This document shows, piece after piece, positions 3,581 to 63,869 of a DNA stretch of 64,000 bases. Numbering within the stretch: the first letter of the stretch is position 1; each line of letters begins with the position of its first letter. Under the pieces are notes generated by a model. The model made no database searches. It saw only the letters and a list, made by a program, of their open reading frames with translations, and was not told the origin of the DNA. This stretch comes from Candidatus Accumulibacter sp. UBA704 (lineage in GTDB: Bacteria > Pseudomonadota > Gammaproteobacteria > Burkholderiales > Rhodocyclaceae), in NCBI GenBank assembly GCA_002304785.1, contig DBMG01000053.1, forward strand, positions 40,227 through 104,226, read 5' to 3'. The position numbers and the translations under genes were made by a program.

Positions 3581-3819
3581 GTGATTCTACCAGCCGCAAC
3601 ACCAGGCCGAACCCAGACATGGAAACTCTCGTCGCATCCGCTGAACCGGCCCCCGCTATCTTGCTGCTTCCGATGCGCGAATCTTCTCGATTAAGACTGA
3701 GTTAAGAATCGGCTGCTTAAATGCGAGCACCCGGAGTGATCCTCAACCCACCTCGACCACACGAAAGACAGGCCGGGACAAAACAACAACGGACTTCGCC
3801 ACCGTTCCTGGAGCTTTCA

Positions 3820-59689: not shown

Positions 59690-60547
59690 TCATTCCTTTG
59701 GGAAATCGGCCGCCCGAGCCACCGCTTCTCCAGCGCGGAATTCCTTGAGCAACGATTCCAGCCGTGCCGTGGAAACATCGAATGCGGCATTGCCGAGCAG
59801 CAAGTGGCTCGGCGGATTTGGCAACTTTACGGCGTCGACGATGGCCTTCACCGCACGCACCGGATCACCGGGCTGCTTGCCCGAGTACGCACGCAACTGC
59901 TCGCGTTTGACCCCGGAGGTTGTCGCATAGTCCTCTATGTGCAATGGACTTTCATTGGCGGAGCGCCCGGCCCAGTCGGTACGGAATCCGCTCGGCTCCA
60001 CAACGATGACCTTGATGCCCAGAGGCTCCACTTCAAGGGCCAGCGATCCGGACAACCCTTCGACCGCGAACTTGGTGGCGCAGTAGTAACCCAACCCCGG
60101 GAAGGAATTGATGCCGGCAAGCGAAGCGATGTTGATGATAAAACCGCTGCGTTGCTGACGCATGCCGGGCAGCACGGCCTGGGTCATGCGGCCGAGAGCA
60201 AACACATTGACGTCGAACATCCGCCGCACCTCGGTTTCTTCGCTCTCCTCGACGGCGCCGAAATAGCCGATGCCGGCGTTGTTGACCAGCACATCGATGC
60301 GCCCGAAGCGGTCATGGGCCGCCTTGACCGCCGCGTCGATCTGCGCGTTGTCGGTCACGTCGAGCTTGAGAACAAGCGCCCCTTCGGAAGCCGAGAATTC
60401 CTTCAGATCCTCCGGCTTGCGCGCCGTCACGACGGCACGGTAACCGCACGCCAGCACATGCCGCGCCAGATCACGCCCGAAACCGGTGGAACAACCGGTA
60501 ATGAACCACACGAGGCTTTCGCCAACCCCTGGATTGCCATTCACCAT
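59690..60547 (-). CDS. SDR-family oxidoreductase
   Basis: TGCSTGFG cofactor motif, NNAG, and the YxxxK catalytic motif (YCATK). Confidence 0.9.
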   Translation of the reverse strand: MVNGNPGVGESLVWFITGCSTGFGRDLARHVLACGYRAVVTARKPEDLKEFSASEGALVLKLDVTDNAQIDAAVKAAHDRFGRIDVLVNNAGIGYFGAVEESEETEVRRMFDVNVFALGRMTQAVLPGMRQQRSGFIINIASLAGINSFPGLGYYCATKFAVEGLSGSLALEVEPLGIKVIVVEPSGFRTDWAGRSANESPLHIEDYATTSGVKREQLRAYSGKQPGDPVRAVKAIVDAVKLPNPPSHLLLGNAAFDVSTARLESLLKEFRAGEAVARAADFPKE

Positions 60548-60582
60548 TCTTGTCTCCTCAGCAGTATTTTTGAAACAATGTT

Positions 60583-61374
60583 TTATTTTACTGCGCTGCT
60601 TGCCGTGTTAGCCAGACGAATGTAATCGGAAAGAGGCAGTTCCTCGGCCCTTGCCGTGGGCGAAATATTGAGGTGTACGAACAAGGCATCGTCGACGATA
60701 CCCTTGAGGTTGTTGCGCAGCATCTTGCGCCGCTGGCCGAACGCCGCAGCCACCAGAGCGGCAAACCGCGCCTCGTCGCGTACCGTCAGATCCTCGGGAG
60801 CGCGCGGAATCAGTCGCACCACGGCGGAATCCACTTTTGGCGCCGGATCGAACGATTCCGGCGGTACGTCGAGCAACCAGTCCATCATGAAGCGGTATTG
60901 CAGCATCACGGAGAGCCGCCCGTAGTCGGCCGTTCCCGGCTCTGCCACCATGCGCTCGACGACTTCCTTCTGCAGCATGAAATGCATGTCGAAGACGCTG
61001 TCGGCGAACTGCGCCAGGTGGAACAGCAAAGGCGTGGAGATGTTGTAAGGCAAATTGCCGACCACATGCAGTTTCTGCCCGGGTTGCCCAACCAATCCGC
61101 CAAAATCGAAGGCCAGCGCGTCTCCTTCGTGGATCGTTAGTTTTTCGGCAGAATAACGTTGCCGCAACCGGGCCACGATATCGCGATCAATTTCGACCAC
61201 ATGCAGGTGGTCGAGTCGTTGCAGCAACGGTTCGGTGAGAGCCCCTAGGCCCGGTCCGATTTCGACGACCAGATCGTCACGCCGCGGCGCCACCGCACCG
61301 ACAATCTCACCAATCACCTGCGCATCGATCAGGAAATTCTGCCCAAAACGCTTGCGCGCAACATGCTTGCTCAT
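60583..61374 (-). CDS. rsmA: 16S rRNA (adenine1518-N6/adenine1519-N6)-dimethyltransferase
   Basis: [26 protein letters not shown] motifs. Confidence 0.95.
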
Positions 61375-61543
61375 GCCTTACACCTCGACTCAAGCGTTTC
61401 AGTGCAGGCTAACCTGCGCCAGCAGGTTACGCCGGAGCTAAAGCGTTTGCGAGCTACGTGTTTGCTCATTCCGAGAACCTGAATCCAAACCCTTCAGTGC
61501 AGGCTAATCTGCGCCAGCAAGTTGCCCCAGAGCTGAAGCTTTT
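61354..61543 (-). repeat. two tandem 95-bp repeat units at the pdxA-rsmA junction
   Basis: 61449-61543 against 61354-61448 gives 72/95 identical in a gapless alignment. 61345-61353 begins a third, partial copy inside rsmA. Confidence 0.85.
61371..61469 (-). CDS. mini-ORF b (32 codons, [32 protein letters not shown])
   Basis: Its ATG overlaps the stop of mini-ORF a, and its TGA overlaps the rsmA ATG. The first 10 codons encode the RsmA N-terminus with only synonymous differences. Confidence 0.45.
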
Positions 61544-61546
61544 CAT
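61466..61546 (-). CDS. mini-ORF a (26 codons, [26 protein letters not shown])
   Basis: Its ATG overlaps the pdxA TGA, and its TGA overlaps the ATG of mini-ORF b. It shares the core [15 protein letters not shown] with mini-ORF b. Confidence 0.4.
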   Translation of the reverse strand: MKSFSSGATCWRRLACTEGFGFRFSE

Positions 61547-62553
61547 TGGCGCACTCCGGCGCGGTTTGCCATCTCGATGGCCTGATCGACGGCGACGAAG
61601 AGGCTGCCCGGGTCGGCGCGACCGGTACCGGCCAGTTCAAGCGCAGTTCCATGGTCCACTGAGGTCCGGATGATCGGCAGGCCAAGCGTGACATTGATGC
61701 CGTTGCCGAAGGTGGCGTATTTGAGCGCGGTCAATCCCTGGTCATGGTACATGGCCAGCACGCAGTCGCCCTGCGCCAGCATCGGCGGCGTGAACATCGT
61801 GTCGGCGGGCAGCGGGCCGACGAGCAACATCCCTTCCGCGCGCAATTTCTCGAGCACGGGTGAAATCACCTCGATCTCCTCGTTTCCAAGGTACCCCCCC
61901 TCACCGGCATGAGGATTAAGTCCGGCAACAAGAATGCGCGGCCGGGCGATCCCATACTTTCGGTACATCTCTTCATGCAGGATGCGCAGCGTCTGTTCCA
62001 ACGATTCCCGGGTAATCGCGGCAGAAACCTCCTTCAACGGCAAGTGCGTGGTCGCCAGAGCCACCCGAAGCTCGCCGCCGGCAAGCATCATGACGACACG
62101 GTGCGTATGAGTCCTTTCGGCCAGATATTCAGTGTGACCCGTGAACGGTATGCCGCTATCGTTGATGACACCTTTATGCACTGGAGCCGTCACCATCGCC
62201 GCGAATTCGCCGGACTGGCACCCCACCAGCGCTCGGTCAAGCAAACGCAGCACGTAGGCGGCATTGGCCGGATCGAGCCGGCCGGGAACCGACAAGGTAG
62301 CGAGCGGAAGATGCAGAATATCCAGGGTTCCGGCTTGCGGGGCGCTATCCGGATCCCAGTCGCGCAGAGCAACGCGCGCATGCAGCATCGCTGCCCGCTC
62401 CGCTATCATCTTCCGGTCACCGAGAACGACGATGCGCGCAATCGTCCCGATAGAGTCGCCGCGCCCCGTTTGCTCGGCCAGCCGCAGGCAGAGTTCCGGC
62501 CCGATTCCTGCGGGCTCCCCGGAAGTCACCGCAATCACCGGCATGGTGCCCAC
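61543..62553 (-). CDS. pdxA: 4-hydroxythreonine-4-phosphate dehydrogenase
   Basis: TSGEPAGIGPEL, GHTEYL motifs. GTG 62553; an alternative ATG is at 62544. Confidence 0.9.
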   Translation of the reverse strand: MGTMPVIAVTSGEPAGIGPELCLRLAEQTGRGDSIGTIARIVVLGDRKMIAERAAMLHARVALRDWDPDSAPQAGTLDILHLPLATLSVPGRLDPANAAYVLRLLDRALVGCQSGEFAAMVTAPVHKGVINDSGIPFTGHTEYLAERTHTHRVVMMLAGGELRVALATTHLPLKEVSAAITRESLEQTLRILHEEMYRKYGIARPRILVAGLNPHAGEGGYLGNEEIEVISPVLEKLRAEGMLLVGPLPADTMFTPPMLAQGDCVLAMYHDQGLTALKYATFGNGINVTLGLPIIRTSVDHGTALELAGTGRADPGSLFVAVDQAIEMANRAGVRQ

Positions 62554-62555
62554 AC

Positions 62556-63869
62556 TCAGCGATCTTCCAGACGCACTTCGACGTAGGCCCGATCGCGCGC
62601 CTGACGCAGCCAGTCCTGATAGGCCTCGTCGAGCTTGCGCTCACGCAGTGCTTGGCGCGCCGCTGCCTTCTGACGATCAGCGGATACGTCCTGCACCCGC
62701 CGCTCGAGCACTTCGATCAAGTGGTAGCCAAACGGCGATTTGACGGGACGACTGACTTCGCCCGGCTTCAAGTCATTCATCGCACGCTCGAACTCGGGAA
62801 CGGTATCGCCTGGATAGATCCACCCTAGGTCGCCTCCTTTCGTTGCCGACCCGTCCTGCGAATGGCTCCGGGCCAGTTCCGCGAATTTTTCTCCGTGCCT
62901 GATGCGGTCGTAGAGTCCTTCCATCTTGTGCAGAGCTTCCGATTCCGAAACGATCTCATTGACCTTGATCAGGATATGGCGGACATGCGTCTGCTGCACG
63001 GCGGGAAGACCACCCCCTCCCCCCCGCTTGGCCACCAGTTTGACGATATGGAAGCCATTCGGGCTGCGCAGGAGCGGTGCGACCTCCCCTGGTTTCAGCT
63101 TGACGACGACTTCAGAAAAGATAGTCGGCAGGCGGTCGAGTGGACGCATGCCCAGGCTACCTCCCTGCAAACCGTCCGGCGCATCGGAATAGGCGGCGGC
63201 GAGTTGGGAGAAATTCTCTCCCTTAACGGCACGATCCAGCACCTGATCCGCCTTGGCCTTGAGTCCGCTGATCTGTTCCGGACTGGCCGATTCGGGGGCG
63301 CGCAGCAGGATGTGGGCGACTTCGTACTCTTCACTGGCCCCGGCCTTGGCCGATTCTCCGCTCAGGTAGTTTTCGATCTCGCCTTCCGAAATGGCGATCT
63401 TGCTTTCCACCTCGCGCTCACGAACGCGGGCAATGGTCATTTCATTGCGGATATCCTCGCGGAATTTGTCAAACGCCACGCCGTCCTTTTGCAGAGCCTC
63501 GCGGAATTGCGCCATGGTCATTTTGTTGCCTGCGGCGATGCGCTGCAGGGCCTGGTCGAGTTGCACGTCGTCGATGCGCAACCCGATATCGCGCGCATGC
63601 TGCAACTGCACTTTGTCCATGATCAGGCGTTCCAGCATCTGCCGTTCCAGTACGTCGCGCGGTGGCAGCGGCGTCCCTTGGCGCCGCAATTGGCTGATCG
63701 CAACGCCAAGGCCAGAGCGCAGTTCATGCAAGGTAATCACTTCGTCGTTGACCACCGCCACGATGCGGTCGACCGGAACGGGTTCGCTATTGGCTCGCCG
63801 AGCCGTCTGCGCCGAAGCGACTGCCGACAGGCAGAAGAACAGCAGGACGATTCGCAGCAAAGATGTCAT
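62556..63869 (-). CDS. surA: periplasmic chaperone / peptidyl-prolyl isomerase SurA
   Basis: Signal peptide and two parvulin domains. Conserved position between lptD and pdxA. Confidence 0.95.
   Translation of the reverse strand: MTSLLRIVLLFFCLSAVASAQTARRANSEPVPVDRIVAVVNDEVITLHELRSGLGVAISQLRRQGTPLPPRDVLERQMLERLIMDKVQLQHARDIGLRIDDVQLDQALQRIAAGNKMTMAQFREALQKDGVAFDKFREDIRNEMTIARVREREVESKIAISEGEIENYLSGESAKAGASEEYEVAHILLRAPESASPEQISGLKAKADQVLDRAVKGENFSQLAAAYSDAPDGLQGGSLGMRPLDRLPTIFSEVVVKLKPGEVAPLLRSPNGFHIVKLVAKRGGGGGLPAVQQTHVRHILIKVNEIVSESEALHKMEGLYDRIRHGEKFAELARSHSQDGSATKGGDLGWIYPGDTVPEFERAMNDLKPGEVSRPVKSPFGYHLIEVLERRVQDVSADRQKAAARQALRERKLDEAYQDWLRQARDRAYVEVRLEDR

Follow-up and report, generated by a model that had tools for sequence, protein, structure and literature searches.

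A locus-specific, stackable mini-ORF cassette at the pdxA-rsmA junction that probably preserves translational coupling

Can the junction between two genes coupled through overlapping stop and start codons become longer with the coupling preserved? The question is raised by the junction of pdxA and rsmA (ksgA) in a stretch of 64,000 nucleotides (nt) from Candidatus Accumulibacter sp. UBA704 (contig DBMG01000053.1, positions 40,227 to 104,226), referred to here as the window. Two short open reading frames (ORFs), designated ORF a and ORF b, lie between the two genes, and every stop codon on the way overlaps the next start codon. Coordinates follow the numbering of the 64-kb window, the junction genes and the mini-ORFs are on the minus strand, and L-numbers designate compared loci. 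As judged from sequence, a cassette that can be stacked and is specific for this locus has made the junction longer and keeps translation coupled across it, a reading to which we give a probability of roughly 0.6. Ribosomes are probably handed over along the stop/start overlaps; the mini-ORFs would then be translated, and rsmA would depend on them.

Anatomy of the junction and its repeated unit

The products of pdxA and rsmA were identified with the models TIGR00557 (417.8 bits) and TIGR00755 (282.5 bits), in agreement with the gene names of a first-pass annotation made from the letters alone. That annotation had also placed two mini-ORFs and three ATGA overlaps between the genes, and its coordinates were confirmed. 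The pdxA stop TGA (61545-61543) overlaps the ATG of ORF a (61546), and the three consecutive ATGA stop/start overlaps are at 61546-61543, 61469-61466, and 61374-61371, with the rsmA ATG at 61374. Conceptual translation of the mini-ORFs gives peptides that include MKSFSSGATCWR... and MSKHVAR... sequences. The mini-peptides have no match in Pfam or NCBIfam.

The underlying DNA is a tandem repeat with the exact period of 95 bp that had been proposed for it. Segments 61449-61543 and 61354-61448 are identical at 72 of 95 positions without gaps, and the match was also reported by a repeat search (76%); the best other 95-nt match, at offsets of 30 to 300 in the whole window, is 53/95. Tandem Repeats Finder with a minimum score of 30 missed the repeat, the divergence being too high and the copy number below 2.2. 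A third copy begins with the first 30 nt of rsmA, as the first reading had it. The two units of the array, A and B (Table 1), differ in their heads. In the alignment, ORF a corresponds to ORF b with codons 2-7 (18 nt) deleted in frame, and the peptide common to both begins FSSG[A/V].

A distance of 95 nt separates the ATGA at 61469 from that at 61374; both occupy one homologous position of the repeat and are not independent coincidences. The ATGA at 61546 is the ancestral pdxA/rsmA overlap and serves as the start of ORF a. It had been argued from the first reading that the copies differ in reading frame and that every one stays open even so. The absolute frames do differ, but the codon phase relative to the repeat is the same in both copies (61543 and 61448 are both codon starts), because 95 equals -1 modulo 3 and a frame shift of -1 comes with every ATGA. 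The open frames and the second and third ATGA were therefore inherited with the unit.

An origin of the 65-nt interior of unit B from the neighbouring genes was considered and rejected. Local alignment against shuffles gave p of ~0.03-0.5 for an inverted copy of rsmA nt 19-62, and of ~0.04-1 for a direct copy, in collinear order, of rsmA nt 31-80 joined to the pdxA 3' end. These tests are not robustly significant, and on the alignments derivation from rsmA is demonstrable for the 30-nt head only.

An assembly artefact is ruled out, since the two-unit junction is reproduced in two other assemblies. Across 2604 nt, no difference from the window is present in a Logan assembly (L094) made from a public run, and a Joint Genome Institute (JGI) metagenome contig (L093) has an identical 301-nt junction and, in ungapped comparison, 147 differing positions elsewhere in the 3.8-kb locus.

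A scan of 61100-61900 predicted no sigma-70-like promoter and no intrinsic terminator. A SurA gene was recognized upstream of pdxA by curated cut-offs, and the gene order surA-pdxA-rsmA is kept in close relatives. The gene located 35 nt downstream of rsmA, at 59690-60547 (-), codes for a short-chain dehydrogenase (adh_short), and this arrangement is also kept in close relatives, unlike the E. coli operon, where we take apaG/apaH to follow rsmA. On the opposite (+) strand, a frame without stops runs across both units in all seven unit sequences compared (in the window 61363-61482, 39 amino acids, and 61458-61673, 71 amino acids); it is probably a by-product of GC-rich sequence facing an open frame.

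Table 1. Features of the pdxA-rsmA junction in window coordinates (SD, Shine-Dalgarno)
Feature	Position	Strand	Basis or remark
pdxA (4-hydroxythreonine-4-phosphate dehydrogenase)	61543..62553	-	ORF list; PF04166 and TIGR00557 above cut-off
Unit A, 77 nt	61470..61546	-	B-type unit minus head codons 2-7; begins at the ancestral pdxA/rsmA ATGA
ORF a, 26 codons and stop	61466..61546	-	ATGA overlap at each end
Core hairpin of unit A	61502..61528	-	weakened by one wobble pair and two mismatches; motif match 61493-61519
Segment X of unit A	61487..61501	-	predicted pairing with ORF b nt 22-35 (61435-61448); z = 0.05 vs shuffles
Unit B, 95 nt	61375..61469	-	30-nt copy of rsmA 5' end and 65-nt interior
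ORF b, 32 codons and stop	61371..61469	-	ATG overlaps ORF a stop; TGA overlaps rsmA ATG
ORF b head	61440..61469	-	copy of rsmA nt 1-30 (RsmA N-terminus); identical to genuine L105 rsmA head
Core hairpin of unit B (GGC.GUAACCUGC-UGGC-GCAGGUUAGCC), 11 bp	61407..61433	-	RNAalifold columns 37-63; stem the same in every B unit
Segment X of unit B (ORF b codons 22-26)	61392..61406	-	5' arm of the predicted helix enclosing rsmA SD and AUG
SD GAGGUG for rsmA	61381..61386	-	inside the predicted hairpin; anti-SD duplex -7.2 kcal/mol
rsmA nt 22-35 (codons 8-12)	61340..61353	-	3' arm of the predicted helix with segment X
L111/L081-like (B-allele) segment in L105-like backbone	minimal 61348..61439, maximal 61325-61451	-	mismatch map
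rsmA/ksgA (16S rRNA A1518/A1519 dimethyltransferase)	60583..61374	-	PF00398 and TIGR00755 above cut-off

Distribution, conservation and history of the units

In an RsmA scan of species-representative genomes, pdxA and rsmA of most Rhodocyclaceae share a plain 4-nt ATGA overlap, and ATGA coupling is therefore taken as the ancestral state. The proteins nearest to the RsmA of the window are named Propionivibrio. The units are confined to one Propionivibrio-related sub-clade, and there to the pdxA-rsmA junction. The A+B arrangement of the window is present in L093 and L094 (RsmA 100% identical to the window), and the 77-nt unit A of the window is the sole unit in L105-L110 (97.7%). One B unit in the order pdxA-ATGA-ORFb-ATGA-rsmA was found in L081/L111 (94%), L084 (92%), and L082 (88%). 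In L001 (~79%) and L083, the T2-type loci, the pdxA stop is followed by a 71-107-nt spacer with palindromic elements of the repetitive extragenic palindrome (REP) type, an SD, ORF b, and ATGA-rsmA; only the downstream ATGA overlap is kept, and ORF b has its own SD and is not overlapped with pdxA. The 95-nt B units of L081/L111, L082, L084, L001, and L083 are orthologous. No unit is present in L085-L090 (88-90%), L091 and L104 (88%), and L098 (80%). Among relatives at 88-100% identity in RsmA, copy number varies in this way, the states being none, A, B, and A+B.

An upstream copy of the rsmA head was found only in unit-bearing loci and always exactly 95 nt from the rsmA head, with a best background match of 10-16/24. 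The core motif has no match elsewhere in the 64-kb window with up to 3 mismatches, and a search of 241 million metagenome records gave 3 matches, 3/3 of them at pdxA-rsmA. By these searches, the unit is locus-specific and not dispersed.

Nine distinct unit sequences were recovered, and they fall into four diverged types (T1, L084, A, and T2). In all nine, the ORF is open and terminates on the ATGA at the next start. The terminal stop is the only one in the ORF frame in 7/7 tabulated units, and 1-4 stops are present in the other two sense frames; the A unit of L105 and the B unit of L111, read directly from sequence, are likewise open and end on ATGA. Conservation in orthologous loci, which the first-pass annotation had put forward as a check of its reading, holds for the units of L081/L111, L082, L084, L001, L083, and the L105-type A, with frames and ATGA kept and no broken frame seen among the recovered units. 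The B unit is 95 nt long in every lineage and its ORF has 32 codons in every case, and the tails are only 8-13/23 identical between types, without indels. In the 42-nt core, B units have 35-41/42 identities, all codon positions included, and its amino-acid changes are mostly non-synonymous (S/F, V/I, R/G, A/V, T/A, and L/F in ORF b after residue 10), which together argue for constraint at the nucleotide level, not the peptide level.

The two-unit array is young. The genuine rsmA head of L105 is the same as the ORF b head of the window, the rare GCT codon included. In the mismatch maps, rsmA of the window differs from that of L105 at nt 9, 12, 15, 18, 24, and 27, and next at nt 135; against L111 there is one difference in nt 1-50, and differences are dense from nt 51. 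The pdxA gene of the window is L105-like, with 2-13 mismatches per 100 nt, vs 12-32 to L111. The tail of copy A is nearest to the L084 tail (17/23, vs 11/23 to copy B). By these maps, the window is an L105-like A-only backbone with an L111-like segment of ~92-127 nt (the B interior and the first 30-50 nt of rsmA), and its A+B state arose recently, by recombination of two alleles with one unit each. In an equivalent history, L105 could be a deletion derivative formed via recombination between two heads. Units would be gained, lost, and concatenated through recombination between the repeated heads, which we infer as the best explanation of the pattern.

Where the ORF b head differs from the rsmA head, the change is synonymous in every case (6/6), and GCT, AGT, and AGG looked like codons specific for ORF b. 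Purifying selection on the peptide of the ORF b head was considered and rejected on account of the L105 rsmA head: because the two heads are the same, the 6/6 synonymous differences are a legacy of two functional rsmA alleles. Also, the ORF b head of L081 is the rsmA head of L084.

The pdxA-rsmA junction seems to be a recurrent insertion site. The spacers of the T2-type loci, L083 (reverse complement) 3686-3790 and L001:2336-2406, contain REP-like palindromes, e.g., GGGTGCGAAACGCAACGCGTTGCGCACC. An unrelated palindromic insertion of 187 nt (CCACCGCAAAGGCGCAAAGG...CCTTTGCGCCTTTGCGGTGG), similar to a MITE (a miniature transposable element with inverted repeats) or REP, is located at L095:1314-1500 (Propionivibrio sp. 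GCA_049316945.1), which has no mini-ORF unit, and the short-read contigs L096 and L097 end inside an insertion of this type, 51 nt upstream of rsmA. Gene-sized insertions between pdxA and rsmA were found in Rhodocyclales and Gallionellaceae-like loci, namely L017, L021, L022, and L034 (~790-920 nt), and L026 (531 nt). Unrelated ORFs of 21-25 codons span the pdxA-rsmA gap in two Thiobacillus, one Nitrosomonas, and one Cellvibrionaceae locus (L039/L040:2431-2496, L059:2424-2501, and L060:2428-2499), that of Nitrosomonas ending in a GTGA overlap with rsmA; sister loci L030, L032, and L042 have similar gaps and no spanning ORF.

Coupling by hand-over and its rivals

Four parts would make up the proposed cassette: the rsmA start codon with a copy of the rsmA 5' end, carrying the ancestral reinitiation context; the conserved hairpin; a segment complementary to codons ~7-11 of the next ORF; and an ATGA on the next start, 3n-1 nt after the start of the cassette. 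Ribosomes ending pdxA would reinitiate on ORF a, the translation of which should be close to unavoidable because it starts at the ancestral rsmA reinitiation codon and context. They would then terminate on the ORF b ATG and reinitiate, and a ribosome on ORF b would melt the hairpin burying the SD and AUG of rsmA, terminate on the rsmA ATG, and reinitiate once more. In this manner the junction could grow by 77 or 95 nt per unit with rsmA still coupled to pdxA. Termination-reinitiation coupling requires overlaps or very short gaps (PMC6728339; likewise the passages on coupling in PMC10666635), and a downstream gene can receive ribosomes from a short ORF (PMC12548453). An untranslated spacer of 73-168 nt would be expected to uncouple rsmA, and mini-ORFs would not.

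The hairpin in question was predicted by RNAalifold from six B units with their rsmA starts. In addition to the core hairpin, a 14-bp helix is predicted between unit columns 64-78 (segment X) and columns 117-130 (rsmA nt 22-35). The columns are 97.6% paired, vs 24-56% with slid partners, and include two compensatory pairs (A-U/G-C, C-G/U-A). The predicted energy is -32.8 kcal/mol for the helix of the window, with z = -3.69; the helix makes up 75% of the ensemble, and its 5' arm lies inside ORF b. The start of ORF a has an SD (GGAG in the pdxA 3' end, -6.1 kcal/mol). Starts that follow A and L084 tails have weak SD pairing (-2.6 to -3.8 kcal/mol), which resembles ancestral overlapped junctions (unit-free junctions have -3.3 to -3.8 kcal/mol) and fits coupling.

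Several observations weigh against the cassette as a coupling device. The SDs in B and T2 tails are strong (-7.2 to -8.1 kcal/mol), and rsmA could therefore initiate independently. The sequestering helix beats shuffles in T1 units only; z is -1.4 to 0.05 in A units, L105, L084, and L001, and in L084 the competing pairing of the ORF b head with X is the minimum free energy fold. Evidence of selection on frame and length is thin, coming from four diverged unit types only, and a 23-nt tail has a high likelihood of staying stop-free by chance. Many close relatives are unit-free, the unit being lost or never present. In other betaproteobacterial lineages, pdxA-rsmA gaps of 25-135 nt have no bridging ORF, and coupling is therefore not obligatory for rsmA. 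Moreover, since the two-unit state is recent, its intactness in the window says little on selection. The first-pass annotation had taken the junction for expanded and still coupled, not a neutral spacer. This view gains from the orthologous units, all open and ending on ATGA, and loses its argument from different frames; with the recent array and the gaps tolerated elsewhere, coupling is a probable interpretation of the sequence.

Neutral structural polymorphism is an unlikely alternative. The array would be a duplication or recombination scar at a tolerant junction, with inherited open frames and units too young or too few to decay; rsmA would rely chiefly on its own SD for translation, and the mini-ORFs would be incidental. 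Such a scar agrees with the patchy pattern of none, A, B, and A+B among close relatives (88-98% RsmA identity), the recent mosaic of the window, the ancestry that accounts for the synonymous-only differences of the heads, the strong B and T2 SDs, and the unbridged gaps; also, the 251-nt region taken as a whole shows no unusual structure (z = -1.33). It fits less well that the T1, L084/A, and T2 tails have diverged so far and yet contain no indel and no in-frame stop, that the core is kept at all codon positions though RsmA is ~79% identical across lineages, and that two compensatory changes preserve the helix. The A and L084 tails have no usable SD, and absent the ORF, rsmA would be 73-91 nt past the pdxA stop with a weak start.

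A regulatory leader is considered quite improbable. Translation of ORF b would toggle X between the ORF b head and codons 7-11 of rsmA, as in the attenuator-like 1:2 / 2:3 switch of erm leaders, or the hairpin would be an autoregulation site for RsmA/KsgA. The two folds are mutually exclusive and ~4-10 kcal/mol apart in 5/6 genomes, near-equal in L083, and the preferred one (head:X or X:rsmA) differs between lineages; however, the alternative pairing is a trivial consequence of the duplicated head. The core stem is invariant while adjoining synonymous sites vary, and for the same reason the core hairpin has no covariation support. RsmA scores against Erm models, and Erm paralogues are controlled by leader-peptide attenuation; reportedly, E. 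coli KsgA binds its own mRNA and represses it (van Gemen et al. 1989). On the other side, residues 11-32 of ORF b change mostly non-synonymously, the unit is absent from many close relatives, and Rfam gave no match overlapping 61340-61546 at E up to 10 (searched 60500-62600) and none at gathering score in the whole window. A possible mimic of 16S helix 45 for KsgA autoregulation, considered for its resemblance (GUAACC...GGUUAG), was rejected, as the window has no 16S rRNA for comparison.

A mobile element similar to the interspersed repetitive units of mycobacteria (MIRUs), inserting at start codons with its own coupled ORF, is very improbable: the architecture is MIRU-like (40-100 bp, often tandem, internal inverted repeats, and -4 nt ORF overlaps on both sides; PMC12548453, PMC3184786) and unrelated palindromic elements have invaded this junction in L095, L001, and L083, but the motif searches in the window and the metagenome records, together with head copies at +95 nt only, speak against a dispersed or mobile element, the first 30 nt of the unit are the conserved N-terminal codons of rsmA itself, present also in unit-free lineages, and the direct repeat at the flanks measures 30 nt instead of 4.

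Little probability is likewise given to the cassette as a tunable translational valve for RsmA, in which each unit would multiply synthesis by a reinitiation efficiency below 1, the fold switch or binding of RsmA to the hairpin would report ribosome traffic or RsmA level, and copy number would act as heritable gain control. The last gene of the relay, ksgA/rsmA, is the determinant of kasugamycin sensitivity. Downstream genes of coupled pairs are more kasugamycin-resistant (PMC12548453, section on ribosome scanning), and the position of ksgA at the end of the relay may be a coincidence.

Significance and comparison with known systems

If the relay works, a coupled overlap can be expanded by modules from the start region of the downstream gene itself with coupling intact, and the modules can be stacked or removed via recombination. 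The natural allelic series (none, 77-nt, 95-nt, and both) is unusually clean material, the genomes being otherwise 94-100% identical in RsmA. With it, reinitiation efficiency could be measured against the number of stop/start hand-overs, as could the share in coupling of a helix that sequesters the ribosome-binding site. The series also bears on how MIRU-like architectures arise without a mobile element.

The MIRUs are the closest analogue. They are described, in the passages of PMC12548453 and PMC3184786 that follow Supply et al. 1997, as intercistronic operon units of 40-100 bp, often tandem, with variable copy number and internal inverted repeats. Their ORF is coupled at -4 nt to the flanking genes, and the insertion affects downstream expression little; they are dispersed, a genome having ~40-50 such loci, and are regarded as mobile, with direct repeats of 4 nt (PMC12548453, PMC3184786). 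The unit described here is also short and intercistronic, occurs in tandem, and varies in copy number; it likewise has inverted repeats, and its ORF overlaps the stop and start on either side. It differs in its restriction to pdxA-rsmA in the window and the metagenome records, where MIRUs are dispersed, in starting with a 30-nt copy of the 5' end of the downstream gene, and in its occurrence in a betaproteobacterial (Propionivibrio-related) sub-clade, with spread via homologous recombination between repeated heads. By analogy of these described features, above all dispersal and the head, the unit is set apart and is not a member of the MIRUs.

Termination-reinitiation is known from ATGA/TGATG overlaps (Huber et al. 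2019, PMC6728339; PMC10666635). The same 4-nt ATGA is present here three times in a row, the first being the ancestral overlap. In the parts of these sources that treat coupled pairs, both members are genes of full length; of the three partners in the present case, two are ORFs of 26 and 32 codons from no recognisable protein family, spacers only. In coupling through RNA unfolding (rpmI-rplT, MS2 coat-lysis; PMC12548453), the downstream SD and AUG are, as predicted for unit B and rsmA, enclosed in a helix with the other arm inside the upstream ORF, and upstream translation should therefore open the helix. The helix predicted here is different in being a by-product of the repeat, because X is complementary to the duplicated head, and it is thermodynamically convincing for T1-type B units only. 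Short upstream ORFs that deliver ribosomes and synthetic bicistronic designs (PMC12548453, refs 75 and 78) also bring a ribosome to the next start by means of a short ORF. The present case differs in that it occurs in nature, is iterated in tandem, and varies in copy number between close relatives.

In the erm attenuator, a short leader ORF precedes an rRNA adenine dimethyltransferase gene, and alternative pairings can hide the SD and AUG. The junction resembles it in having a short ORF before a gene of this kind and predicted alternative pairings; unlike in erm, the mini-ORF stop overlaps the start codon, many close relatives are leaderless, and there is no evidence of ligand-dependent stalling. 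The proposed cassette combines two textbook models of coupling, reinitiation and RNA unfolding, and is a local variant of known coupling, with no new mechanism or principle.

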